A stretch of DNA of 64,000 nucleotides from Fibrobacter sp. (GTDB lineage: Bacteria; Fibrobacterota; Fibrobacteria; Fibrobacterales; Fibrobacteraceae), in NCBI GenBank assembly GCA_024398875.1, contig JAKSIJ010000006.1:59802-123801 (forward strand). Direction: 5' to 3'. Both the position numbers and the translations under genes were made by a program. Every line of letters begins with the position of its first letter. Within the stretch, counting starts at the first letter, position 1. Positions 4,401-52,192 of this stretch are shown here, piece after piece. The notes beneath the pieces were generated by a model. It saw only the letters and a program-made list of their open reading frames with translations, did no database searches and was not told the DNA's origin.

Positions 4401-5537
4401 ATGCCGAGAGATTTGAATTTCCAGTCCGTCTACAGGGACATCGCCAACACGCTGAATTCCGTTCGGCGGTGTAGCGAGCAGTCCGCCCAAATCCAGCACA
4501 TCCTGAAAAACGCCTTCGAAAGTCTGGAGGTCGCCCACGAAAAGGAGTGCGAGCATCTCCGGAACATCGTAGAGGGAACCCCCGGCGACCTCATCGGCAA
4601 CACACGGGAGATGCAGGACGTCCGGGAGCAGGTGCAGCAAATTGCAGGCACTGAGGCGACACTTCTATTGCGCGGGAATTCCGGCACCGGCAAGGAATAC
4701 ACCGCCCGAACCATCCATCAGCTTTCGGACCGCAAAGAGAAGCCCTTCGTGATTCTGAACTGCGACGCGCTCAGCACGCTCCCCGGCGGCAATTCCTTCG
4801 AGAGCGAGCTGTTCGGGTACGAGCGCGGCGCTTTCGCCGGCGCCATGAGCAGGCACATCGGGAAGGCGGAGCAGGCAAGCGGCGGGACCCTCTTCCTGAA
4901 CGAAGTGGCGGACCTTCCCGCCGCGGCGCAGACAAAGCTGTTGCAGTTCATTCAGGACCGCAGCTTCAGCCGACTGGGAAGCAACATCGTCCAGCGCGCA
5001 GACATCCGCATCATCGCGAGCACGGGCAAGAATCTGGAAAGCCTCATCCAAGAGGGCCGCTTCCGCGAAGACCTCTTTTACCGCCTGAACATTTTCCAGA
5101 TTCACCTGCCCGACCTGGCGCAGCGCAAAACGGACATTCTCCTTTTGGCAGATTACTTTATCGGCAAGATGAATCTGAAATACGGGAAGAAGATTCTCCG
5201 CCTCAGTTCCCCCGCCATCGACATGCTCATGAGCTACCACTGGCCAGGTAACGTGCGGGAGCTGGAGAACTGCATCGAGCATGCATGCCTCGCCACAACA
5301 GACGTGGCCATCAACGCCTACGACTTGCCGCCTACGCTACAGACGGATGTGACCAGCGGAACAACGTTACTGCCCGAAGGCAGCGCCTCACTCACAACCC
5401 TGCTGGATAGCTACGAAAAAGAAATCCTCACCGAGGCGCTAAAGCGCAACGGCGGGAACATGAGCGCCGCGGGCCGAGAACTCTCCGTCAGCCCGCGGAT
5501 GATGCACTACAAAGTTAAGAAGTTCGGTTTGAGTTAA
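4401..5537 (+). CDS. Sigma54-interaction-domain (NtrC/NifA-like) Fis-family regulator with degenerate motifs
   Basis: GNSGTGKE Walker A, FESELFGYERGAFAGA, GGTLFLNE, RFREDLFYRLN, WPGNVRELEN, C-terminal Fis HTH. Confidence 0.9.
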   Translation: MPRDLNFQSVYRDIANTLNSVRRCSEQSAQIQHILKNAFESLEVAHEKECEHLRNIVEGTPGDLIGNTREMQDVREQVQQIAGTEATLLLRGNSGTGKEYTARTIHQLSDRKEKPFVILNCDALSTLPGGNSFESELFGYERGAFAGAMSRHIGKAEQASGGTLFLNEVADLPAAAQTKLLQFIQDRSFSRLGSNIVQRADIRIIASTGKNLESLIQEGRFREDLFYRLNIFQIHLPDLAQRKTDILLLADYFIGKMNLKYGKKILRLSSPAIDMLMSYHWPGNVRELENCIEHACLATTDVAINAYDLPPTLQTDVTSGTTLLPEGSASLTTLLDSYEKEILTEALKRNGGNMSAAGRELSVSPRMMHYKVKKFGLS

Positions 5538-11638: not shown

Positions 11639-13675
11639 TTAAAACCCCTGGGTGAATGTGAGCCGGTATTCTCGCCCCGGCATGGGGAAAGGCGAATAGG
11701 CGTTTCGATACGTTTCGTCCGTAATGTTTTCGACTGCAAAAACAAAGCGTGTTTGCGTATAAGGTGTAAAACCTAAAGCGGCACGATGGTTGGGCACCGC
11801 AGGCTGCTCCAGGCGATTTCCGCGGTCTTCATAAATTTTGGTGCGGTAGGAACTGGCCCAGGTAAAATCAAAATGGAAGGGCAACTGCAACTTGGCTTCC
11901 GTATAATAACTCTGCACAGGTTCACCAGGAAGATTCTTATCACGGTAAGCAACATCATCCGTGTGGTCCAAGGCCTTCTGAATCGTAGCCCCCATCAGCA
12001 CCTGCAAGAATTTCGCCGGATGACTTTCCAAGTTCAGTTCCAACCCGCGAATGCGAACCTCCCCCACATTCAAAGCCTTCATGAAAGCGCCGCTTGTAAC
12101 CCAGTAAATCCCGTTATCCACGGCGGTTTCGTAGTATGTTACCCGCAGTGTAGAAATTTTTTTGGGTGTAGAAGCGAAGAGGCCGCCCTCAAAGCGCAGG
12201 GATGTTTCCTCCTTCAAATCTGGATTGGAAACGACCCCCGGGTAGACGCCATACAATTCCATCAGTTGCGGCTGGCGATAGAAGCGCCCGAGGCTTATAT
12301 GCCCGCCAAAATAGCCCGCGGGCTGTGTCAGCAAAATCGCCCCGCGGTAAGAGTAGGAAGCGTCCCGATTGCTGGCGGTTTTCAACTTCTGCGTTGCAGT
12401 AGGGAGCACGAATTTTCCACCATCGATGTCGTCTTGCAATAGCTGGAGGGATGCCTCGCCCGAGGTAGCAAGCCAGCGAGTGATGTGGAAGTTCACCTCG
12501 CCTGCAGCATTTCCAGAATAGCGTTCCAGCGCCCACTCCCGAGAAGTTCCGCGGGCCTCCATGCGGTCGAAGCCGCCTGCAATCCGGAGCGTTGCCACAA
12601 GTCGCTCACCCAAATATTCCGCAGTTATTTCCGGCAGCAGATGATAGCCCGCAGCACCATACTCCAGATATTCTGTGGAGAAGTATCCGATGTGATCCAG
12701 CGGATAGTAAGAGTGGGAAACGTTCTTCTCAAAACGTCCCGAAAGGCCCGCCGTAAGCCACAGCCAGCCCAACAACTCTGGCGATTCCAGACGATAACTG
12801 AGGGTAGCATTTTCCCCCTCGTAGCCTGCAACTTTCGTCTGGAATTCTCCGCGGCCAGGATTTCCACCTTCGGCATACGCGCCGTTGAAAGCGAGCGTAG
12901 AGAAGGCGCCGTTCCCGTGCAAAATCCGAAGTTCCGCACTACCCGAATACTCCGTAAAATCTGCATTCTCCCGATTTGCCGTAAAGTCGTCATCCTTATT
13001 GTAGGGCGTTCCATTTTCACTCTTGAATTCATAGTCATTGTCGGAATGCCTGGCAGAAACTCCCGCCGTAAAGCCCACACTGTCTGTAATTGCGGAGTTA
13101 ATTTGGATTGCCGTCTCCCAGTAGTTGTGGCTTCCGTAAGCGGCGAGGAATTTACCCGACGATTCCTGGTTAGAAACTTTTGCGGACTTGGTAATGAAAT
13201 TTACAGCGCCGCCAACTCCCGAACCGCCAAATTTTACAGGCACACGATCCTTATAAACCTCAATTTTTTCAACCTGGTTCAAGTCAATTCGTCCCAAATC
13301 CACCGCACCACCGCTGCCGTCATTGAGAGGGACGCCGTTCACGCAAATCAAAATATCCTGGCCAGCAATTCCCCGAATGCTGATGGTCTGAAAACTCCCC
13401 ACGCCACCTTGGGAATGAGCCTCCACGCCTGTGAGAGAAGAAAGCAGTTCTGCCGCCGAAATGCCGCGGCCCTCCCATGCTTCCGGCGAAATTTCTTCAT
13501 AAGAAGATTGCTTTTGCGACGTTTCAAAAGTGTCAGCACCCGCAATCTCGCTTGCACCCAAATCACGAATAGGCCCATCTTCAGCAACAGCCAAAGAAAG
13601 CCATCCACACACAGGAAGACACAGACAAAGTAATCTACGGAATCCCGTAGTGGTTAAAGCCAACGTCTCTCGCAT
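11639..13675 (-). CDS. btuB: TonB-dependent receptor, probable cobalamin transporter
   Basis: Plug motifs ISIRG, NGVPLND, VEKIEVYK, GGAVNFIT; SNPDLKEETS; C-terminal Phe; B12 riboswitch upstream. Confidence 0.85.
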   Translation of the reverse strand: MRETLALTTTGFRRLLCLCLPVCGWLSLAVAEDGPIRDLGASEIAGADTFETSQKQSSYEEISPEAWEGRGISAAELLSSLTGVEAHSQGGVGSFQTISIRGIAGQDILICVNGVPLNDGSGGAVDLGRIDLNQVEKIEVYKDRVPVKFGGSGVGGAVNFITKSAKVSNQESSGKFLAAYGSHNYWETAIQINSAITDSVGFTAGVSARHSDNDYEFKSENGTPYNKDDDFTANRENADFTEYSGSAELRILHGNGAFSTLAFNGAYAEGGNPGRGEFQTKVAGYEGENATLSYRLESPELLGWLWLTAGLSGRFEKNVSHSYYPLDHIGYFSTEYLEYGAAGYHLLPEITAEYLGERLVATLRIAGGFDRMEARGTSREWALERYSGNAAGEVNFHITRWLATSGEASLQLLQDDIDGGKFVLPTATQKLKTASNRDASYSYRGAILLTQPAGYFGGHISLGRFYRQPQLMELYGVYPGVVSNPDLKEETSLRFEGGLFASTPKKISTLRVTYYETAVDNGIYWVTSGAFMKALNVGEVRIRGLELNLESHPAKFLQVLMGATIQKALDHTDDVAYRDKNLPGEPVQSYYTEAKLQLPFHFDFTWASSYRTKIYEDRGNRLEQPAVPNHRAALGFTPYTQTRFVFAVENITDETYRNAYSPFPMPGREYRLTFTQGF

Positions 13676-13723
13676 TCAGCCTCAAAGTTGCGGCATAACG
13701 CTTTGCGCCATGCCCGTGGAGCC

Positions 13724-13945
13724 TTACAGTTCTTCTGACTCGGGAATCATCCTACTTCCAGCCCCTTCACATCTGGCTTCGCAGTTGCCTGCCCGCCAAA
13801 CATTGGTTTTTGCTGGTTTCGTCCTCCCTTACAGCGGCGGGACCGTTCCCGAATTTGCCTTGGCGTTTTGCCAGTTGCAGCACGGGATTCTCTTACAAAG
13901 TAGGCCGGCGATTCACAAACCGCGACACCCCACCTTGCAGCCTTT
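13724..13945 (-). ncRNA. Cobalamin (B12) riboswitch
   Basis: Minus strand reads AGAGAATCCCGTG...TTCGGGAACGGTCCCGCCGCTGTAAG...GAGTCAGAAGAACTG, the hallmark B12-element segments, about 50 nt upstream of btuB. Boundaries are approximate. Confidence 0.85.
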
Positions 13946-13974
13946 CACAGCATAAGGTTTTGACGAGTTAAATA

Positions 13975-14008
13975 TAAAAAATCGCGAGCCATTCCGTGCC
14001 CGCGATTA
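13975..14008 (-). terminator. Probable intrinsic terminator downstream of ackA
   Basis: AATCGCG...CGCGATT stem followed by a T run on the minus strand. Confidence 0.5.
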
Positions 14009-14090
14009 ATTGTAAATTGTGAATTTTGAATTGTGAATTGATAACTAAGGCGAGTGAAGCGACCAAGCTTGTTTGGGCATTTCCGAGCCG
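13997..14090. repeat. Modular intergenic repeat, copy A (15-bp module, heptamer array, 43-bp module)
   Basis: The reverse complement of 14048-14090 matches 42127-42169 at 39/43. 13997-14011 is the exact reverse complement of 41894-41908. An AATTGTG/AATTTTG heptamer array lies between them. Confidence 0.85.
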
Positions 14091-14119
14091 GTTATCAACA
14101 ATGACAAAGTCATTAATTG

Positions 14120-15289
14120 TTACGCCATTGCTTCTGTATCGAGAGCGATGAGCAGTTCTTCGTTGGTAGCCACCACCATGGCAGTCGGCGTACCATCCTT
14201 ACTGATGATGTGGCCAGATTCCTTACCGCTCTTCATGTTGCGTTCATCGTCAATCTGGTAACCCAGCAGAGCCAAGTTCTCCATCACCGTCTTACGCACG
14301 AGGAAGCTGTTTTCGCCAATGCCGCCAGTGAAGACGAGAGCATCAATCCGCGGAAGTGCCATAGCGATGCCGCCGATTTCACGTGCCAACTTGTAGCAGA
14401 AAGTTTCAATAGCAATCTGTGCGCCCACATTGCCTTCGCTTGCAGCCTGGCTCAAAGTGCGCATGTCGTTGCTAAGTCCAGAAAGACCCAGCAAACCGGA
14501 TTCCTTGTTCACCATCTTGTCCAGACGATCAATATCGTAACCATACTTCTTGCTGATGAAGAAGAGAATGGCGGGGTCGATGCTACCGGAACGGGTGCCC
14601 ATGATGAGGCCATCCAACGGTGTAAAGCCCATAGTGGTGTCGGCGCACTTGCCGTTCAGGATTGCAGAGCAGCTGGAGCCATTGCCCAAGTGGGCGGTAA
14701 TGAGGCAAGTTTCTTCCGGCTTCTTGCCCAAAATCTTGCAAGCTTCGCCCGTCACAAAGCGGTGGCTGGTACCGTGGAAGCCGTAACGGCGGATGGCGTC
14801 CTGTTCATAGAACTTGTAGGGAATGCCATAGAGAAAGGCCTTACGAGGCATAGTCTGATGGAAAGCCGTATCAAACACTGCAACCTGGGGAAGCTTGGGG
14901 AAGAACTTCATGGCGCATTCCATACCAGTAGCATGGGCGGGCTCATGGAGCGGGGCAAACAGAGTGATGCTACGGATGTAATCAATCACTTCCTGAGTAA
15001 CTTTTTCGCTCTTGATGTACTTACCGCCATGCACCACGCGGTGACCGATGGCCTCGATGGAATCGATGAGTTTCTGTTCTCCCAAGAACTTCTGCACTTC
15101 TGCCACAGCTTCTGCGTGAGTGGGGCAATCGAAGTTGAAATCAATCTTTCCCTCCGGGCCCTTGGCCTTCACATGACCGTCAACGCCGATGTTTTCCACA
15201 AGGCCGCTGGAAATGGATTCCTGAGTTTTGGTATCGATGACAGCGAACTTCACAGAAGAGCTGCCGCAATTGAGAACGAGAACACGCAT
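14120..15289 (-). CDS. ackA: Acetate kinase
   Basis: VLVLNCGSSSVKF, GHRVVHGG, APLH, VFDTAFHQT, RRYGFHGTSH, HLGNGSS, FTGGIGEN, TNEEL. Confidence 0.98.
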   Translation of the reverse strand: MRVLVLNCGSSSVKFAVIDTKTQESISSGLVENIGVDGHVKAKGPEGKIDFNFDCPTHAEAVAEVQKFLGEQKLIDSIEAIGHRVVHGGKYIKSEKVTQEVIDYIRSITLFAPLHEPAHATGMECAMKFFPKLPQVAVFDTAFHQTMPRKAFLYGIPYKFYEQDAIRRYGFHGTSHRFVTGEACKILGKKPEETCLITAHLGNGSSCSAILNGKCADTTMGFTPLDGLIMGTRSGSIDPAILFFISKKYGYDIDRLDKMVNKESGLLGLSGLSNDMRTLSQAASEGNVGAQIAIETFCYKLAREIGGIAMALPRIDALVFTGGIGENSFLVRKTVMENLALLGYQIDDERNMKSGKESGHIISKDGTPTAMVVATNEELLIALDTEAMA

Positions 15290-23798: not shown

Positions 23799-25175
23799 AT
23801 GAAACATACATGGAAAATCTTAACTCTCGTTAGTTTTATGGCAATGGGTGTATTTGCGCAACAGACAACCACTGCCACTACTCCGTCGGCTCCAGCTGCT
23901 GAACAACCTGCAGCCCCAGCCGCCGCACCTGCTGCTCCTGCTGCCGCACCGGCCGACACCGCAAAGGCCGCTCCTGCCGCAAAACCCGCTCCCGCAGCGA
24001 AGCAGGACTCCACAAAGGCGGCTCCTGTAGCAAAGCAAGACTCCGCAAAAACCGCACCAGCAGCAGCTCCTGCCGATACGGCAAAGGCAGCCCCAGCCGC
24101 AAAACCGGACACAACAAAGGCTGCACCTAAGGCTGATTCCACTAAAATCGCTCCTGCCGCAAAGCAGGACACGACCAAGGCCGCACCTAAGGCTGATTCC
24201 GCTAAAGTAGCGCCTGCTGCAAAACCGGACACAACTAAGGCCACTCCGGCACCTCAAGACACTTCCGTTGCGGCCAAAGATTCTACAAAGGCAGACACCT
24301 CCGCAACCGCTGACACCGCCAAGGTCGACTCCGCAGCCGCTCCTGCTAGGGTAGATACAGTCTACATCGTCAAGGACACCACAAAGAGCGAGAAAATGCG
24401 CGGCAAGCGCTACTTCAAGGATCATCAGGATTCTGTGATGGCCGAGAAAGCCAAGCGCGATTCCCTAACAACCAATCATGGTATTTCCGTCATGTTCGGG
24501 AATAACAACGACAAGCGCTATGGTTACATCGGTTCTCAAGATGACTATGATGATCACTGGGGTGCTGGTTTCGGTATCTACTACTTCTACCGTCACTACT
24601 TCGGCAGCCATTTTGCTTTGGAAGGTCGTCTCGGCGGTGTATACCGCTATGCTCGCTGGTCCCAAGACCTTGACTTCCCTCAATACTACAACATCGCCCG
24701 ACTCGGCAATGGCAAGTACGACCTGAACCATCATGTCGATATCTACTATGACAACTACGCCATTGACGCTCCGCTTTCTGCTAAGGTTGGTGGTCATATT
24801 GGCGCAACAGAATTCCTCTATGCTGGTGTCACCCTCAGCCTTATGAAGGACTTCTACGATAAGGTAACCTCCCGCAACGAACTCACCTTGAAGAACGTCT
24901 CTCCAGAAATGAAGAAGGATTTGGAAATTCTTGAAAAGGAAGGAAAAAATCCCTTCCCCATGGTGGAAGACCACTACACCAGCGACTGGTACCAGATGGT
25001 GGACTGGGAATCTGGATTGTGGGCAAACTTCGGCCTCGATTCCAAGTTCTTCTCTGTGGAAGCTCAGTTGCTCATTATGTCTGCTGCTACGACAGACTAC
25101 AACCACCGGTTTGAATATCTGGGCCATGACTGGAACCCGACATGGCGCATATTTGTGGACTTTAGCATCAGGTAA
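23799..25175 (+). CDS. Secreted/outer-membrane protein with an Ala/Pro/Lys/Thr repeat stalk and a probable beta-barrel C-terminal domain
   Basis: Signal peptide; about 180 aa of repeats (GCACCTAAGGCTGATTCC recurs with a 60-nt period); aromatic alternating beta-strand pattern ending IFVDFSIR. Confidence 0.75.
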   Translation: MKHTWKILTLVSFMAMGVFAQQTTTATTPSAPAAEQPAAPAAAPAAPAAAPADTAKAAPAAKPAPAAKQDSTKAAPVAKQDSAKTAPAAAPADTAKAAPAAKPDTTKAAPKADSTKIAPAAKQDTTKAAPKADSAKVAPAAKPDTTKATPAPQDTSVAAKDSTKADTSATADTAKVDSAAAPARVDTVYIVKDTTKSEKMRGKRYFKDHQDSVMAEKAKRDSLTTNHGISVMFGNNNDKRYGYIGSQDDYDDHWGAGFGIYYFYRHYFGSHFALEGRLGGVYRYARWSQDLDFPQYYNIARLGNGKYDLNHHVDIYYDNYAIDAPLSAKVGGHIGATEFLYAGVTLSLMKDFYDKVTSRNELTLKNVSPEMKKDLEILEKEGKNPFPMVEDHYTSDWYQMVDWESGLWANFGLDSKFFSVEAQLLIMSAATTDYNHRFEYLGHDWNPTWRIFVDFSIR

Positions 25176-40653: not shown

Positions 40654-41205
40654 ATGCAGTTTGCCAGCTTGAAATCCCGAATTCTCCTGATTTTGGCCTC
40701 CCTCTGGGTCCGAAGCCTCAGAATCCGGCTCCACGCCCCAGCGGATTACCGCCCCGGAGTCCTGGGACTGTGGCATCGGGATTTGCTGGCCAGCACCGCC
40801 TGCTTCAAGAATAAAGACGTCCATGTGCTGATTTCGGAATCCAAGGATGGGGAATTTTTTGCGAAACTGGTTGCAAAACTTGGGTACAAAGTCACCCGAG
40901 GGTCCGACAGCCACGGCGCCCTCAACGTGCGGCACCTTCTGCGGACATTGAAAGAGGATGGGTTTGTGGGAATGGCCCTAGACGGCCCCCGCGGTCCGGC
41001 ACTTGAAGTCAAGCCCGGATCTTATTGGCTCGCTGAAACAGCAAACCGCCCCCTGTGGCTTATCGAGCCCCATTATGGGCCTCATTTTTCTCTAAAATCC
41101 TGGGATAAATTCATCGTTCCCTTGCCCCTGACAGCGATTGACATTCAAATTAAATATCTTTCGGACGTAGTTGAACATTCTAACCTAAAAGGAAAACAGC
41201 CGTGA
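40654..41205 (+). CDS. DUF374 / lysophospholipid acyltransferase-like protein
   Basis: WH, LISESKDGE, VTRGS, ALDGPRGP, LKSWDKFIVPLP. Confidence 0.82.
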   Translation: MQFASLKSRILLILASLWVRSLRIRLHAPADYRPGVLGLWHRDLLASTACFKNKDVHVLISESKDGEFFAKLVAKLGYKVTRGSDSHGALNVRHLLRTLKEDGFVGMALDGPRGPALEVKPGSYWLAETANRPLWLIEPHYGPHFSLKSWDKFIVPLPLTAIDIQIKYLSDVVEHSNLKGKQP

Positions 41206-41867
41206 TTGCAATGCCGCCTAAATTTGTCGCTTTTGACCTGGAAACGACTGGACTTGTTTGTGGAAAAGATGAAATTATCGAAATCGGTGCCGTGAAATTC
41301 ACCGTGGAAACCAAGGCCGGACGCGTGGTTCCCAAAATCGAGAAGGAATTCGAAACCTTCGTGAAGCCGAGCATGATGATTCCTGCCGAAGCTTCCAGCG
41401 TGAACCACATTACCGACGCCATGGTGGAAAACGCTCCTCTTCCGGGCGAAGCCATCAAGAACTTTGCAAACTTCTGCGGGCAGGGTTCCATCCTCCTCGC
41501 CCACAACGCCAATTTCGACTCCAGTTTTTTGCGGGATGCCTACAAGAAGAATCCGCAGTTCGTGCCCGGGAACCCCATCGTGGATAGCCTCGCCATCGCC
41601 CGCACCATTCTGCCGGAACTCACCGACGAAACGGGCAAGCACAACCACAAGCTGGGCTTTTTAGCCAACATGTTCAAGCGCCGGAATGAAATCGCCATGA
41701 GCATTGATTCCGACAAGATGCACCGTGCGGTCTATGACTGCGAAATGCTGATGGAAGTGTTTGTGGCGCTGCTCCGCCGCCGCCTGAAAGAGAAGGACTG
41801 GGAGATGGGGAGCATTATGCAGGCCATGGCCAAGTATAAAGGCATCCCACAGTTCCTGAACAAATAA
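41202..41867 (+). CDS. DEDDh 3'-5' exonuclease (DnaQ-like)
   Basis: FDLETTG, EIIEIGAV, AHNANFD, DSL, HRAVYD; GTG start overlapping the DUF374 stop. Confidence 0.92.
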   Translation: MIAMPPKFVAFDLETTGLVCGKDEIIEIGAVKFTVETKAGRVVPKIEKEFETFVKPSMMIPAEASSVNHITDAMVENAPLPGEAIKNFANFCGQGSILLAHNANFDSSFLRDAYKKNPQFVPGNPIVDSLAIARTILPELTDETGKHNHKLGFLANMFKRRNEIAMSIDSDKMHRAVYDCEMLMEVFVALLRRRLKEKDWEMGSIMQAMAKYKGIPQFLNK

Positions 41868-42190
41868 TGCAGAATGCTGAATGCGGAATGATGAATTAAT
41901 CGCGGGCAATGACGCGTCCGAGGCTTCTCATAATTCATACTTCGTAATTAATAATTTTTGGATTGCCGCGCTACGCTCGCAATGACGCTTACGAAGCAAT
42001 TCACAATTCAAAATTTAAAATTCAAAATTCACAATTATCTTATGAGAGTTCTTCGTCAGAAGCCTCTCGTACTTCATACTTCATAACTCATAATTTATAA
42101 TTAGTGCTTCGCACTCATTTTGACTTCGGCTCGGAAGCGCCCAAGCAAGCTTGGTCGTTTCACTCGCCTCGACAAAATTCATAATTACAT
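41866..42190. repeat. Modular intergenic repeat, copy B: four heptamer arrays interleaved with hairpin modules
   Basis: AATGCAG/AATGCTG/AATGCGG/AATGATG; CTCATAA/TTCATAC/TTCGTAA; AATTCAC/AATTCAA/AATTTAA; CTCGTAC/TTCATAC/TTCATAA arrays; REP-like GGATTGCCGCGCTACGCTCGCAATGAC; 43-bp module. Confidence 0.85.
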
Positions 42191-42400
42191 TATGGGCGTT
42201 GGTTCGTTACAGACTGTAACCCAGTATTCGCCCTCGCACCCAGAGACGCAGGACCCGTCGTGAATCTCCCTCCGGTCCAGTTTGATGACATTGGCATCAT
42301 TGCAGAGATTGCTTTTTGTCCGCTGCTCCGAATAGGTGTCCGGAGCGCAAGCCATAAAAAGACTGCATAAAATACACAAAACACCGCCATGCGTTAGCAT
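42185..42400 (-). CDS. Small Cys-rich putative lipoprotein (71 aa)
   Basis: MLTHGGVLCILCSLFMA-C lipobox and four further Cys; directly downstream of rpmB. Confidence 0.5.
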   Translation of the reverse strand: MLTHGGVLCILCSLFMACAPDTYSEQRTKSNLCNDANVIKLDRREIHDGSCVSGCEGEYWVTVCNEPTPIM

Positions 42401-47297: not shown

Positions 47298-48206
47298 TTA
47301 CAAAAGCCAAGAAACTGAGGCGGAACCAAAGAACAATCTTTCATTGAGCTGATCCCCGTTGATAACAGTAACGCCAACGCTATACTGCATAGTTTTGTGG
47401 AAATTGTATGTGACACCAAAGTAATTGGAGAAATAGAGCGGAAAATCAAAGGTGATTTGCGCTTCATTCTTATCATAACCTGTTGACCTTCCTGCCAATT
47501 CCTTCGTCAAAAACTGCGGAAAATGAATCATAGGAGCATAGATTAAAGCGACGGGGCCAAGAAATAAACTAGCAAAGGAGCCAATTCCAGCCCTTAAGTG
47601 GAGTTGATAATGATCATAGCTGTCTATAAAAGCTTCCGGCTCAGGCCAGGTTTGAATAAAAGGTTCCGAAGCCGATATACCCTCATAGCTGTATTTAGTG
47701 CTATTGTAGTCAACGCCTAAATATGCTGAAGCTCCAAGCTCGCCATAATTTCCGTTGATGCCAATGGTTGCCGTGCCATAAGGCATAAGGTCGAGTCCAA
47801 GCCCCAAAGAAACGAATTTCAATTTATGTTTTTCCAACATTTCTACTTGAACGCTTAGGGGACTTTCCTTAAAAATATAGGTCAGATCTGCGCGACCAGG
47901 GTTAATTTTTTCAGAATAATCATCTTTACTAGCATATCTTTCCCCATCCCGCACATACGCAGAGCCAGTCCAAACTTTTGACAGTTTCGTTTCCTTGCCT
48001 CCGTAACCATTGGTACTCAGGGACACTCTTTTGACTTTAGAATTCTCCTCCATCTTGAATTCGGCTCCACGAACAGGCTGCTGGAGAGTGACGTCAAACT
48101 CCCCTTCAATGACGCTCATCTTGTAGCTGGTGGTTGCACAGCCAACGAAAAGGCTGCACAACCCTATGCACGACATCAAGAAAATATGTAAAACAAATTG
48201 TTTCAC
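47298..48206 (-). CDS. Hypothetical lipoprotein, possible outer-membrane beta-strand protein
   Basis: FVG-C lipobox; Gly/aromatic-rich strands ending SVSWLL. Confidence 0.65.
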   Translation of the reverse strand: MKQFVLHIFLMSCIGLCSLFVGCATTSYKMSVIEGEFDVTLQQPVRGAEFKMEENSKVKRVSLSTNGYGGKETKLSKVWTGSAYVRDGERYASKDDYSEKINPGRADLTYIFKESPLSVQVEMLEKHKLKFVSLGLGLDLMPYGTATIGINGNYGELGASAYLGVDYNSTKYSYEGISASEPFIQTWPEPEAFIDSYDHYQLHLRAGIGSFASLFLGPVALIYAPMIHFPQFLTKELAGRSTGYDKNEAQITFDFPLYFSNYFGVTYNFHKTMQYSVGVTVINGDQLNERLFFGSASVSWLL

Positions 48207-50075
48207 TTAGAAATCCTTCACACAGACGATTGAAGTTTCTGCATTTTGGGGCCACACCGCACTTTGAAGTGTTCCCACCCCATTTTGACCCGTAAAAAAG
48301 ACCGCTATTTCAAGTTCTTCTACAACAGGTGTGCTAGTTTTATAGGAAACAGCTTCAATGGAAGTCGTATCAGTTTTAATCGCTCTAGCTTCTCCACGCT
48401 TAACCAAATTTGCATACGCTCCCCACTCATTCACGCTGGGAATGTGAAAACCATCGGGACATAATAATCTCTCCACATTTTCCCATTTTCCAGAACCTTT
48501 CCAAGCCAAAGCAGAATCGAGCCATATTTTATCTTCCAATACAATAACACCATATAGGTGGCTATCTTTGGTATTATAGACATATCTTATGTTTCTATAA
48601 TCCAGATTATTCTTATCTGGTCCAACATAAAACATTCCGTCCTTCATCTGCCCATACATTTCCCTGCTGGAAGAATCAGTTTCCTCCACAAAATAAGAAT
48701 ACCGCCCATCAGACTGATTAAGTTTCATCCACTGGTATGTTTTGTCGTTGTCAAAGCACCCATAAACTTCGGATTTATATTTCAAAATCTGTAGTGTATC
48801 ACTTTTACGGTTACACAGCTGACCAGTCCTAAACGCATAGGCATCTAATTCGCTTGACCAGTGCCACTCTCCAATCGGCCCCCAATAGATATTTGAAGGC
48901 TGTCCGCAAACCGCAATAGTGTCGTTATATTCGAACATTTGCCCATACTCAATATTAACACCACAAATTCCTATATCGTAATCCAGAAGGGAGGCATCCA
49001 TCCACTCATTACCTCTACAGTAGAAGTAGCGATCAAGGATTCTCTCCACCTGGTTGTCTTCACATTTCCCCAAAAGGTACTTGCGGTTTTCACGGTCATA
49101 TGAGCCCTCCACCCAACCGCTATCCTTGCAAATAAGGAACGAAGAGTCGGTCAATTCGTAAGTGAGATCTTTCCGATAGGTAGAACACAACGGCAGGGAG
49201 TCGTATGAGTCATTATACAATTTCCAGCCATAGCCTCTGTTGCATACTAGGATTGTCCCATAAAATTTGCTACTTTCATCAAAGATTGTATCTGCAAAAT
49301 AGTCGCTACTGCATGTATCAAAGCCATAGGCCTGTGTACATATACCATTGTAATTACCACAACCCATTTCCATATTTTCCAACACAAAATCAGCAATAGG
49401 AATTGTGCCCATTTTTAACTGCAATGATTCGCCGTAATCCTTCACGACTGCAGCAAACTTTTCCTCAAAATCAGCGTCTGACAAATATACTTGAAGCCAA
49501 ATGCCTAATTGATTCTCTACAACCGCTATGTAGTTGTAGGTACTATCTAAATCTTTCTGCGCAAGCCTATTAGCAATATAGTAGGGCAATCCCTCTTCCT
49601 TCACATAATGCAAAATACGGCTAGATTTGAATGCCTGCTCAAAATTAAGATCGAAATCTGCTGAATCCTGACCTATATCAACAATAATTTCCAGTTGTCC
49701 TGTGGTGACAAAATTGGAATTTTTCATCCACGAGCCAGATATGACGAATTTAACAAGGGGCGAATCATAGTCGGCAGCCCCAAATTGACAATTTAATCTC
49801 GCATCAGAAGTTTCGCAATTTGCGTTGTTTTTTAGAACCGGATTGAATAAAGAATCCAACTCATATAGACTTACAGAATCAGGTTTAAAGGTACAAACAC
49901 TAGTAAAATCCTTATGTTTGAAGGTTTCATTTAAGGCTCTCAGTGACAGCGGCCTATTTTCCAAAGAATAGAATGTTTCTAACCGACTATCCTTATCATC
50001 AATAAATTCAACACCATAGTCATCACTACAACTCCAAAACATTAGAAGCGATATGAATAAGAATATCCATCTCAT
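48207..50075 (-). CDS. Lipoprotein with a Fib_succ_major-like C-terminal domain and Cys/Trp repeats
   Basis: FWS-C lipobox; repeated (L/F)xC...W units; LCPDGFHIPSVNEW. Confidence 0.7.
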   Translation of the reverse strand: MRWIFLFISLLMFWSCSDDYGVEFIDDKDSRLETFYSLENRPLSLRALNETFKHKDFTSVCTFKPDSVSLYELDSLFNPVLKNNANCETSDARLNCQFGAADYDSPLVKFVISGSWMKNSNFVTTGQLEIIVDIGQDSADFDLNFEQAFKSSRILHYVKEEGLPYYIANRLAQKDLDSTYNYIAVVENQLGIWLQVYLSDADFEEKFAAVVKDYGESLQLKMGTIPIADFVLENMEMGCGNYNGICTQAYGFDTCSSDYFADTIFDESSKFYGTILVCNRGYGWKLYNDSYDSLPLCSTYRKDLTYELTDSSFLICKDSGWVEGSYDRENRKYLLGKCEDNQVERILDRYFYCRGNEWMDASLLDYDIGICGVNIEYGQMFEYNDTIAVCGQPSNIYWGPIGEWHWSSELDAYAFRTGQLCNRKSDTLQILKYKSEVYGCFDNDKTYQWMKLNQSDGRYSYFVEETDSSSREMYGQMKDGMFYVGPDKNNLDYRNIRYVYNTKDSHLYGVIVLEDKIWLDSALAWKGSGKWENVERLLCPDGFHIPSVNEWGAYANLVKRGEARAIKTDTTSIEAVSYKTSTPVVEELEIAVFFTGQNGVGTLQSAVWPQNAETSIVCVKDF

Positions 50076-50692
50076 AGATAAATCCTCACATCACAACGTT
50101 CCTCTGCATGCTGCACCGACATGCTTAACTTCATATCTTTCGACTTTATGTTCAAGTCAAAGAAATAGCTCACGCGTAGTTCACAATCGGTACCAAATTC
50201 CTCGGAATAGTACTCTCTATTGGGGATGGTGAATTCAAAGTCGTCCTTATCCAATTTATATACATAATCATACCCTTCATCATGGATAATAATGGATGTA
50301 GCATTTAGGCAATTCATATCCGTACAATCCACAATGTCCATCCAAAGTTTCCACCTACCACTTACATTAATCTCATACGAAAGATTGTTAACCTTCGAAT
50401 CGAACTTGCTGATAGAAACAAAAATCGGCGAAAGGGAGGAATCTTTAGACCTTTCTTTAAGAAGGATATTAGAAAAGGGGACATATCCAGAATAGAAGTG
50501 GCGATAATCTACAATGCTGTTGGAGTCCACCCTCTCCTTGTCATACTCAAGAATAAACGAGTCTAATTTGCTTAAGGATAAGTCACCAACTTTGAGGTAA
50601 GACATACCCAATGTTTCTGTTCCCCATTCATAGCCACACCCACAAATGCATAGCAAGACAAAAACAAGGATTATCTTCGGCAAGAATCGCAT
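50072..50692 (-). CDS. Hypothetical lipoprotein
   Basis: ICG-C lipobox; 4-bp overlap with the next gene. Confidence 0.65.
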   Translation of the reverse strand: MRFLPKIILVFVLLCICGCGYEWGTETLGMSYLKVGDLSLSKLDSFILEYDKERVDSNSIVDYRHFYSGYVPFSNILLKERSKDSSLSPIFVSISKFDSKVNNLSYEINVSGRWKLWMDIVDCTDMNCLNATSIIIHDEGYDYVYKLDKDDFEFTIPNREYYSEEFGTDCELRVSYFFDLNIKSKDMKLSMSVQHAEERCDVRIYL

Positions 50693-50827
50693 ACATGATA
50701 ATTCTAGTAAAATTTTTAGTTTATGGCGATGCCCCTTTGCTTACGACAAATTTTCAAACTATTTGTTTGGATTTCTACAAAAAATATGTATATTTATGTT
50801 TGGATTTTTACAAAATAGGACAAAAAT

Positions 50828-52192
50828 ATGTATTTTCAGCGCAATATCGACAAATTTCTGCTAGAATGGGCCAAATCAAAAGACCACAAACCTCTTTTAC
50901 TCCGCGGCGCACGCCAAGTCGGGAAATCTAGCGCGGTTGATCACCTGGGTAAAAAATTTGGAAATTGCGTAACCATAAACTTCGAAAGAAACCCGGAATA
51001 CAAAATCGCCTTCCAACAAAATTTGGATGTGGGCAGAATCGTTTCACAACTATCGGCTCTTAGTGGCATGCCTATTTCCCCAAAAAAGACTTTGCTTTTT
51101 CTGGATGAAATTCAGGAGTGTCCTGAAGCCATTATGTCGCTTCGATTTTTTTGGGAAGATTTACCGCAATTACATGTAATCGCAGCCGGCTCCCTTTTGG
51201 AATTTGCATTGCAGAGTCTTCCAACATTTGGTGTCGGGAGGATACATTCCATGTTCATGCATCCTATGACATTCGATGAATTTCTAATTGCCACCGGTAA
51301 TAAGCGCTTGTTAGAAGTGCGGCTTCAAGCGTCTTCCAAAGCACCGTTGCCAGATTCAATTCACAACAAACTAGTTGAATTATTCCGAACCTATATGATG
51401 GTGGGAGGCATGCCCGAAGCGGTCAAGAAATGGGTTGAGAGCAAGGACTACCTGCAATGTCAAGCCATACAAGACGACATTCTGATTACTTATGAAGATG
51501 ACTTTGCAAAATACAAATCGAAATGTGACCCTCAATTATTGCAGCTAACTTTTAGAAGCATTGCCCTGCAAATTGCAAACAAGTTCTCTCCAACAAAAGT
51601 CGGAAGCGGCTACAGAATAGAAAAAATAAAGAGCGCCGTTCAGTTACTGACGCAGGCAGGAATTGTCATTCCCGTAACACACTCCGATTCAAATGGTCTC
51701 CCCCTCGGTGGTGAAGCGAATCCAAGCTATCAGAAAATGCTCTTGCTTGATTCTGGGTTACAACTCCGATTGATGAATATGTCCCTAGGGAACGCTACTG
51801 CAACAGCCGCAGAAATTCTTACATCAAGTGTCGAAGATCTTGTAAACAAGGGTCCGCTCACAGAAATGCTTGCCGGACTGGAAATTTTGCGGAACAAAAC
51901 GCCGAACATGCGACACGAACTGTTTTATTGGAACCGTCAACAGAGAAATAGCTTAGCAGAGGTTGACTATGTTGACGCAAGAGCCGCAAAAGTCGCGCCC
52001 ATTGAAATTAAAGCTGGTAGTCAAGGTGGCATGAAAAGTCTTTGGATTATGATGCGAGAAAAAAATATTGCGAAAGCCTATCGCTGTTCCCTGGAAAACT
52101 TTGGTGAAATAAACTACACAGACAATCAAAGCGAAGGGGCTCTGAGGCATGTGGATATATACCCCCTCTACGCCATTTCGCAGATGCCGTAG
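50828..52192 (+). CDS. AAA_14 ATPase with DUF4143 domain
   Basis: PLLLRGARQVGKS, LFLDEIQE, AAGSLL, YMMVGGMPE, LLDSGL, WNRQQRNSLAEVDYV, PIEIKAG. Confidence 0.9.
   Translation: MYFQRNIDKFLLEWAKSKDHKPLLLRGARQVGKSSAVDHLGKKFGNCVTINFERNPEYKIAFQQNLDVGRIVSQLSALSGMPISPKKTLLFLDEIQECPEAIMSLRFFWEDLPQLHVIAAGSLLEFALQSLPTFGVGRIHSMFMHPMTFDEFLIATGNKRLLEVRLQASSKAPLPDSIHNKLVELFRTYMMVGGMPEAVKKWVESKDYLQCQAIQDDILITYEDDFAKYKSKCDPQLLQLTFRSIALQIANKFSPTKVGSGYRIEKIKSAVQLLTQAGIVIPVTHSDSNGLPLGGEANPSYQKMLLLDSGLQLRLMNMSLGNATATAAEILTSSVEDLVNKGPLTEMLAGLEILRNKTPNMRHELFYWNRQQRNSLAEVDYVDARAAKVAPIEIKAGSQGGMKSLWIMMREKNIAKAYRCSLENFGEINYTDNQSEGALRHVDIYPLYAISQMP

Follow-up and report, generated by a model that had tools for sequence, protein, structure and literature searches.

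Several described systems come close to the element reported here. The repetitive extragenic palindromic (REP) elements and bacterial interspersed mosaic elements (BIME) of enterobacteria, together with the REPIN doublets of Pseudomonas, are short, imperfect extragenic palindromes present in tens to hundreds of copies. They often lie shortly after stop codons or between the genes of an operon, as single units, arrays, inverted pairs or mosaics, and vary between strains. REP elements near a stop codon affect mRNA stability and translation termination. Integron attC sites are recognised as folded single strands and have an outer stem, an unpaired spacer, an inner stem with an extra-helical base and a variable terminal hairpin. 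The STRR heptamers of filamentous cyanobacteria are tandem 7-nt intergenic units, lineage-specific and with no known function. The TRIT motif of Mycobacterium is conserved in sequence and structure, is located at gene termini, is largely bidirectional and has no classical U-tract; it is reported to be restricted to Mycobacterium and present in 147 copies in M. tuberculosis, centred ~8 nt before the stop codon (PMC3152330). Here we describe a repeat unit of two hairpins found twice in a 64,000-nt stretch of Fibrobacter sp. DNA (the window), once 3' of the acetate kinase gene ackA (locus A) and once 28 kb away (locus B). The evidence supports its membership in a dispersed, structure-defined repeat family that forms mosaics at gene 3' ends comparable to REP/BIME.

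The unit shares with REP/BIME and REPIN elements several of the features listed above: it is a short extragenic palindrome in multiple copies and occurs in clusters of alternating orientation together with other motifs. It differs in that no GTAG-type 5' motif is present in the alignment of 101 copies, where the junctions vary (CTA, CTGC, TTC and others), and in that its stem sequence is free, its unpaired bases are fixed and a second, small hairpin is present. Furthermore, the family crosses phyla and overlaps a promoter consensus in Bacteroidales, and a search of the fetched loci with an approximate query gave no gene for a REP-associated tyrosine transposase (RAYT). TRIT is the nearest described idea, being a conserved palindrome at gene ends that possibly requires a factor. 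Compared by description only, the two differ in copy number and mycobacterial placement, the present unit being found behind tRNA-Leu as a single copy in each mycobacterial genome that matched, with M. tuberculosis missing from the matches; identity with TRIT seems doubtful from TRIT's published description. The attC sites have a similar fold architecture. In contrast to these, the unit lacks RYYYAAC/GTTRRRY boxes, cassette open reading frames (ORFs) and a nearby integron integrase, and is conserved in its inner rather than its outer part; an attC site was rejected because the flanks are off consensus in most subfamilies and there are no cassette ORFs. Neither window locus, nor any of 18 related loci, matched Rfam 15 at gathering or permissive E-value thresholds. 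We found no published description of the element in the literature on Fibrobacter repeats or on REP, RAYT and MITEs (miniature inverted-repeat transposable elements), and no description of Fibrobacter intergenic signals in the literature searched. The core family is absent from the RNA-family library and the literature searched.

The window copies were noticed in a reading made from the letters of the window alone (the sequence-only reading), which took positions 13997-14115 as one intergenic element sharing two modules, in inverted orientation, with locus B. The modules themselves were found as described. The 43-mer forms an inverted pair (14048-14090 and 42127-42169; 43 nt, 91% or 39/43 identical) that is the longest inverted repeat of the window, and a degenerate search returned exactly these two sites, with 0.00 expected from 100 shuffles. 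The 15-mer AATTAATCGCGGGCA is exact at 13997-14011 (minus strand) and 41894-41908 (plus strand) and occurs nowhere else in the window, even at two mismatches (0.32 expected). Heptamers of the AATTCAN family form period-7 arrays at both loci (14008-14040 and 41998-42036), and the module order differs between the loci as had been stated. What needed revision was the view of the shared modules as one element: the 43-mer is indeed shared, but it is merely the core of a ~78-nt unit, and the 15-mer is separate, being a terminator arm. The interval 13997-14115 thus combines, in the 3' region of ackA, non-coding modules of three kinds in a mosaic and is not a single element; the three modules are separate families, one of which is simply the ackA terminator.

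The core of the unit is defined by its fold. A first exact search gave two further Fibrobacter copies, from which it was clear that the middle varies between fixed flanks; in the copy after ackA of another species (L016; labels of this kind denote loci from public genomes compared with the window) the middle of the core differs and is still self-complementary. The gapped pattern GGCTCRGAA-N-CAAG-N-TTCRYTCGCC was used to scan public genomes, and 101 copies were aligned. The fixed flanks of the alignment are imposed by the search pattern, while the covariation of the stem is not. On one strand, termed UC, the core reads GGC / UC / R / GAA, variable stem, CAAG loop, stem, UUC / R (bulge) / Y / UC / GCC; the opposite strand is termed GA. 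An outer stem of 6-8 pairs, the sequence of which differs per subfamily, is followed by a few unpaired bases. The inner part consists of GGC:GCC, a 2x2 UC/UC loop, one R-Y pair, a bulged purine, GAA:UUC and a stem of 8-14 pairs that is free in sequence, with an apical loop centred on AA (GCAAGC, ACAAGT or GTAAAC). Of the 101 copies, 85 have G-C as the R-Y pair, 14 have A-U and 2 have other combinations. For 17 named pairs, 91.5% of the cells were standard-paired, whereas shuffling gave 74.3% and sliding the partners by 1-3 columns gave no more than 50.6%. Cells changed on both sides numbered 282, against 95 expected, and RNAalifold recovered the stem independently. Diverged copies obtained with a covariance model swap even the "fixed" pairs (GCC...GGC, GUU...AAC, GCU...AGC) and keep the UC/UC loop and the bulge. 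The covariation analysis, which the sequence-only reading had proposed as a check, shows that the core family keeps its fold through compensatory changes, with fixed unpaired bases in the UC/UC loop and the one-base bulge.

In most lineages the long hairpin follows a small one that is perfectly paired and has TTC or TTT as its loop, and both window copies are predicted to fold accordingly on either strand. At locus A the 8-bp outer stem is formed by TTGATAAC (14091-14098) and GTTATCAA (14038-14045), which enclose the core with TTA between the core and GTTATCAA. The predicted fold energy of this long hairpin is -22.1 kcal/mol for the UC strand and -24.6 kcal/mol for the GA strand (z of -2.85 and -3.38, respectively). 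The small hairpin of copy A (hp1) has counterparts at the same position in L002, L100, L120 and L134; its loop is TTC in other copies, the opposite strand of which reads C(GAA)G. Copy B comprises the small hairpin AGTGC-TTC-GCACT (42103-42115), the outer stem ATTTTG (42117-42122) / CAAAAT (42173-42178) and the core at 42127-42169.

The two strands of the unit are not equivalent. On the UC strand, stem mismatches are mostly pyrimidine-pyrimidine and seldom purine-purine (49:7 in Fibrobacter, 16:3 in Bacteroidales). Read on the GA strand the mismatches are purine-purine, the internal loop is a tandem G.A in CGAG context, the apical loop is G(CUUG)C and the small hairpin has a C(GAA)G loop. Such tandem G.A, G(CUUG)C and C(GAA)G loops are stable motifs in RNA and DNA. 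The GA strand also folds better in 82 of the 101 copies (mean -24.0 versus -21.3 kcal/mol). Such an asymmetry would not arise from a constraint on duplex DNA. The counts of G-U and A-C are about equal (72 versus 64) and do not tell which strand would be the RNA strand.

The core pattern was found at more than 116 loci in public genomes, mostly metagenome-assembled genomes (MAGs) of Fibrobacter and often in several copies per genome; by our own estimate ~12 of the loci would be chance matches. The closest public genome to the window is the MAG JAKSIK01 from horse faeces, in which AckA is 100% identical in protein and the DNA around ackA is 94-97% identical to that of the window. It contains five pattern copies of the locus B type on four contigs and one diverged copy near ackA, and these six copies, together with the loci of other genomes, bear out that the family is dispersed. 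Units near-identical to copy B are those of L001, L088, L122, L143 and L175 of the related MAG. With cmsearch two copies only were found in the 64-kb window, six in 601 kb around ackA from 72 Fibrobacter genomes (~1 per 100 kb), and 106 in 67 loci that had been preselected for holding a pattern copy. Arrays were found in L118, L105, L134 and L211, and head-to-head or inverted doublets in L132, L191, L211 and L155, an organisation that agrees with the comparison to REP/BIME made in the sequence-only reading. The window itself has only two full copies, which would be in line with a single duplication event or a fortuitous similarity inside this genome, of no wider meaning. This explanation can be dismissed with near certainty: zero matches are expected by chance, there are hundreds of copies elsewhere, with compensatory changes, and the depth of the modules in a metagenome shows spikes.

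The latter observation comes from a gut metagenome containing the strain; of the words sampled from a 1-kb probe around locus A (13600-14600), 98% are present in it. The word depth rises from ~25 to 520 over 14012-14075 and from ~28 to 1100 over 41984-42159; the modules have a depth 10-40 times that of the flanking genes. The stretch 14036-14098 is common to other loci in the metagenome contigs, which break at 14036 and 14098, and many contigs join the locus B modules in other orders.

The 3' region of ackA was also found to differ between close relatives. In the window the unit follows the stop codon directly. L003, which is 94% identical, has no unit at this site; in the same spacer, past the terminator, it carries a diverged copy that is oppositely oriented. 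In L016 and L043 the unit after ackA is in the opposite orientation to that of the window, and in ~68 other Fibrobacter species the site lacks the unit. Presence, position and orientation of the unit thus vary between close relatives. Together with the joins seen in metagenome contigs, this agrees with a mosaic of variable order, whereas the restriction to two copies with a fixed order, which would have spoken for a mere duplication, was not seen. Recombination, which had also been proposed, is indicated indirectly by the changed module order. We noted in addition that in L003 the ackA terminator is separated from the promoter region of the riboswitch by ~250 nt of extra sequence (5190-5510). 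The diverged unit in it, GCCUCACAA...UUGUUUCGGC, is enclosed by longer flanks that are complementary to each other, GGGGCCC...GGGGCCCC. Relative to L003, locus A may show a duplication of AATT, but this is indistinguishable from the AATT-rich heptamers. A classical MITE was rejected, as the outer stems differ between subfamilies and copies and there are no conserved terminal inverted repeats.

We proceeded to analyze the placement of the unit in Fibrobacter, using gene calls from our own simple codon-usage caller, which recovers ackA and its neighbours correctly. In 48 of ~66 copies the GA strand has the same sense as a gene whose end is 2-60 nt distant, in agreement with the placement at gene 3' ends suggested from the window, and only four copies lie inside called genes. 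At four loci the unit lies ~80 nt after a tRNA-Arg with its GA strand in sense orientation. The association of orientation with GC skew is weak (39:25), and an orientation linked to replication was rejected on this ground. From position, orientation and strand asymmetry, we lean towards the view that the unit is a folded single strand which in Fibrobacter acts mainly as an RNA stem-loop at the 3' end of the preceding transcription unit, similar to REP. A stable stem-loop 2-60 nt after the stop codon could, like the REP elements of E. coli, protect the message from 3' exonucleases, or dampen read-through and translation termination. In the case of locus A it would stand between the stop codon and the true terminator. 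The unit would spread by recombination between copies or through an enzyme acting in trans.

Several observations weigh against this view. Copy A is in the minority orientation, with the UC strand being the one expected in the ackA mRNA. Nor is the unit itself a canonical terminator, as it lacks a U-tract. In RNA contigs the region is present at about the DNA ratio and with no direction, and three large raw-read metatranscriptomes gave zero reads. The near-equal numbers of G-U and A-C are unusual for a constraint purely at the RNA level, and the orientation statistics rely on a simple home-made gene caller. Finally, the Bacteroidales copies precede genes and have their GA strand antisense to them, so that a role at RNA 3' ends cannot be general.

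Some of the same data could be explained by a selfish element of single-stranded DNA. The unit would then be the recognition hairpin of an HUH/Y1-type enzyme (RAYT-like or IS200/IS605-like), or of another structure-specific enzyme, and would be copied via a folded single-stranded intermediate; its positions would reflect tolerance to insertion and not a function for the host. Fixed unpaired bases and a bulge within a conserved structure are found also at REP-RAYT and IS608 ends. The asymmetry in mismatch type is also compatible with folded DNA, given that GCGAAGC, CTTG and tandem G.A loops, as on the GA strand, are very stable in DNA, and so are the similar counts of G-T and A-C (72 and 64), the inverted doublets and arrays, the varying presence between close strains and the spread across phyla. 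However, no gene for such an enzyme appeared in the DNA searched. The sequence-only reading had proposed to look for a RAYT, IS200/IS605 or GIY-YIG gene flanked by the modules, and no RAYT or IS200-type gene was found adjoining the core family: tblastn gave no Y1-transposase-like gene in the 1.4 Mb of fetched loci, a weak test as the IS200 TnpA query was approximate, and no gene family recurs beside the copies, as 1475 neighbouring ORFs clustered into orthologous housekeeping genes only. The ORFs between the inverted copies in L211 contain no transposase domain by Pfam. A conserved guide sequence of the GTAG type is lacking. Within one genome the stems vary from copy to copy, which implies that most copies are not recent. 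The orientation follows the neighbouring genes (48/~66) more than the GC skew, and some positions are kept across families, such as that upstream of typA in Bacteroidales. In our judgment a selfish origin is the main alternative but the less likely one, and we retain the 3'-end stem-loop as the preferred reading for Fibrobacter.

Outside Fibrobacter the unit was found in other contexts. In Bacteroidales it lies 30-150 nt upstream of housekeeping genes and tRNAs on the same strand, with the GA strand antisense to the downstream genes, and the core recurs before typA/bipA in several families (L085, L128, L160, L162 and L169). TAnnTTTG is present within 20 nt after the core in 29 of 39 Bacteroidales copies, 26 of which also have TTG ~20 nt upstream, relative to a background of 0.6% per window for the box. 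TTTG/TAnnTTTG is the consensus of promoters for the primary sigma factor of Bacteroides (PMC7366714). The 3' half of the Bacteroidales core coincides with this consensus in the form TTTG-N20-TAnnTTTG. In one Bacteroidales locus (L110, 2726-2847) two 82-nt units were seen in tandem.

Among the matches listed, 14 pattern matches were outside Fibrobacterota and Bacteroidota. Six of these have no hairpin and are expected chance matches, while eight have near-perfect stems (Mycobacterium, Agrococcus, Propionicimonas, Patescibacteria/Saccharibacteria and one gammaproteobacterial MAG). A second pattern gave one copy in each of ~20 species of Mycobacterium and Mycolicibacterium (L193-L214), directly after tRNA-Leu and with the GA strand in the tRNA sense; some of these copies adjoin truncated 3' fragments of tRNA-Leu left by insertions, beside IS-like sequence. 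Some mycobacteria carry tandem repeats of the small hairpin (GTGTGATCGCGGCTTCGCCGCTCAACACAC). In Propionicimonas the copy lies between two genes that were read, by eye from translations only, as rpsM and rpsK (S13-S11). The core pattern gave no match in viral contigs, and a phage signal was rejected accordingly.

These placements would fit a regulatory signal and not a repeat, the fixed core being bound, as DNA or RNA, by a widely conserved host protein; the unit would then form part of housekeeping promoters in Bacteroidales and be the trailer of tRNA-Leu in mycobacteria. Fibrobacterota, Bacteroidota, Actinomycetota, Patescibacteria and a gammaproteobacterium have the same 19 fixed bases. The frequency of the promoter box, the position 30-150 nt before housekeeping genes and tRNAs with its recurrence before typA, and the single copy at the same place in ~20 mycobacterial species are in line with it. 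Nevertheless we consider it unlikely. No candidate factor is known, the promoter box is found with only 2 of 73 Fibrobacter copies, where the context of the unit differs, the neighbouring genes share no function, and among 72 genomes the unit turns up at the ackA site only sporadically. A single explanation may not cover all lineages, given the Bacteroidales promoters and the mycobacterial tRNA-Leu trailer. We tentatively put forward, as one possibility to be kept in mind, that the core (UC strand, GGCUC-R-GAA ... UUC-R-Y-UC-GCC; GA strand, tandem G.A, bulged pyrimidine, CUUG loop and adjoining GAA-loop hairpin) is an undescribed structured motif, recognised as a folded single strand by a factor that occurs across phyla and put to lineage-specific uses. 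These may be a position after stop codons or tRNA-Arg in Fibrobacter, the tRNA-Leu trailer in mycobacteria and a scaffold for housekeeping promoters in Bacteroidales.

Other known motifs were compared to the unit and set aside. A canonical intrinsic terminator is not compatible with the lack of a T-run after the unit. A kink-turn has a three-base bulge with tandem sheared G.A pairs on its 3' side. Here the tandem G.A of the GA strand stacks directly on GGC/GCC and is followed by a covarying Watson-Crick pair and then the one-base bulge, and this motif was rejected. The similarity to 5S rRNA (CUCAGAAGUG) extends over 8-9 bases only and does not include the palindrome. A loop E, a CRISPR repeat, a tRNA fragment and a coding peptide were rejected on reading the sequence.

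The remaining modules of the two loci belong to families of their own (Table 1). At locus A the order on the minus strand is ackA stop codon, 43-mer unit, heptamers, 15-mer/terminator, cobalamin riboswitch and TonB-dependent receptor gene, with the riboswitch as the 3' limit of the mosaic. The receptor is probably a B12 uptake receptor. The hairpin of the ackA terminator (14007-13980) has 10 pairs, 6 of them G-C, followed by the T-run TTTTATATTT, as in canonical intrinsic terminators. The 15-mer (13997-14011) corresponds to the 5' arm of this terminator and 4 further nt that belong to the heptamer array. The terminator is the same in L003, except for a compensatory change in the stem.

Locus B is the 510-bp spacer between the converging genes for an RNase_T-type exonuclease and rpmB, and contains four heptamer arrays, several hairpins and the second complete unit; the order is stop codon, heptamers, 15-mer, further heptamers and, after additional sequence, the 43-mer. 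A second dispersed hairpin family was recognised here, (G)GATYGC - G+C-rich stem-loop - TCGCRAT(GACG), with members at 41960-41988, in L001 (6350-6390) and in L009, L019 and L053. The ackA terminator (13980-14007) and the truncated 15-mer copy (41894-41915) appear to belong to this family; judged from its letters, the latter looks like a truncated terminator-family hairpin in which ATGACGCG directly joins the 5' arm. A possible small ORF (66 aa; 42190-42390) is present on the opposite strand between the rpmB terminator and copy B, its end being 16-20 nt from copy B; it had no Pfam match and was rejected by the codon-usage caller. A longer reading frame overlapping this ORF has, judged by eye, a start resembling a signal peptide or lipoprotein.

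Heptamer arrays were found to be a general feature of Fibrobacter gene ends, with a lineage-specific unit. In the ~400 nt after ackA of ~70 species (L004-L076) the units GACGAGA, GACGAAA, AATTCGG, GAGCTRT, GTAGACA, GAGGTAT and AATTCAT were seen, and the arrays usually flank a GGCTCCGC...GCGGAGCC terminator. Between converging genes the arrays on the two sides are mutually inverted, each having the same sense relative to its own gene. At locus A the array lies between the unit and the terminator (AATTGTG on the plus strand being AATTCAC on the minus strand), and the AATTCAN array at 41998-42036 is of the same family and has the same orientation relative to the upstream gene. The arrays resemble STRR heptamers in being tandem, intergenic, 7 nt in period and lineage-specific; unlike these, they have other unit sequences, sit directly after stop codons and adjoin hairpin modules. 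A role as stop signals in three frames was rejected, since AATTCAC/AATTCAA and GACGAGA arrays, read in the direction of the upstream gene, are free of stop codons. The best explanation is that the heptamers are spacer arrays.

Table 1. Features of locus A and locus B, in positions of the window (TRF, Tandem Repeats Finder).
Feature	Position	Strand	Evidence or remark
ackA (acetate kinase) coding sequence	14120..15289	-	Pfam Acetate_kinase, E=1.7e-140; stop TAA 14120-14122
Repeat unit (copy A), ~78 nt, two hairpins, 43-mer as core	14036-14114	-	
hp1, perfect small hairpin AATGAC-TTT-GTCATT, 5' hairpin of unit	14100..14114	-	Sequence; predicted on both strands
Long irregular hairpin of unit	14036..14098	-	cmsearch 60.1 bits, E=1.3e-19
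43-mer, conserved core	14048..14090	-	Inverted-repeat listing, degenerate search, covariation on 101 copies
Heptamer array AATTCAC AATTCAA AATTCAC AATTTAC, period 7, 4.7 copies	14008..14040	-	TRF score 52
Intrinsic terminator of ackA, AATCGCGGGC-acggaatg-GCTCGCGATT then TTTTATATTT	13970..14007	-	Terminator scan
Cobalamin riboswitch, leader of TonB-dependent receptor gene	13708..13935	-	Rfam RF00174, 64 bits, E=1.7e-13
TonB-dependent receptor gene, directly downstream of ackA terminator/riboswitch	11639-13675	-	Pfam Plug domain
RNase_T-type exonuclease gene	41202-41867	+	Pfam RNase_T
Heptamer array AATGCNG, directly after exonuclease stop codon	41866..41896	+	TRF
Exact 15-mer copy	41894..41915	+	Exact search
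Heptamer array	41928-41956		TRF
Complete hairpin, GGATYGC...TCGCRATGACG family	41960..41988	+	Sequence; relatives L001, L009, L019, L053
Heptamer array AATTCAN, 5.6 copies	41998..42036	+	TRF score 57; inverted pairs I2, I7
Further hairpin preceding heptamer array	42044-42068		
Heptamer array ACTTCAT / AACTCAT / AATTTAT	42070..42100	+	TRF
Second copy of repeat unit (copy B)	42103..42178	+	cmsearch 64.5 bits, E=3.3e-21

Two further regions of the window were noted. Tandem 60-nt (and 21-nt) repeats at 23906-24242 lie in a coding region rich in Ala, Pro and Lys codons (GCNGCACCTAAGGCTGATTCC...) and are probably part of a repetitive surface or linker protein. The stretch 48001-52000 has a G+C content of 0.41, compared to ~0.50 in the rest of the window, and may be acquired DNA.

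In the guts of herbivores, Fibrobacter is one of the main degraders of fibre. Such repeats influence how stable messages are, operon polarity, the supply of promoters and genome rearrangement, and they also break metagenome assemblies, the contigs here ending exactly at the unit borders. The unpaired bases of the core are kept from Fibrobacter to mycobacteria and Patescibacteria while the stem is free, which points to a shared recognition mechanism. If this is true, the unit would provide a handle on 3'-end formation in lineages where classical terminators leave some gene ends unexplained, and it might help to explain how Bacteroidales promoters are built.

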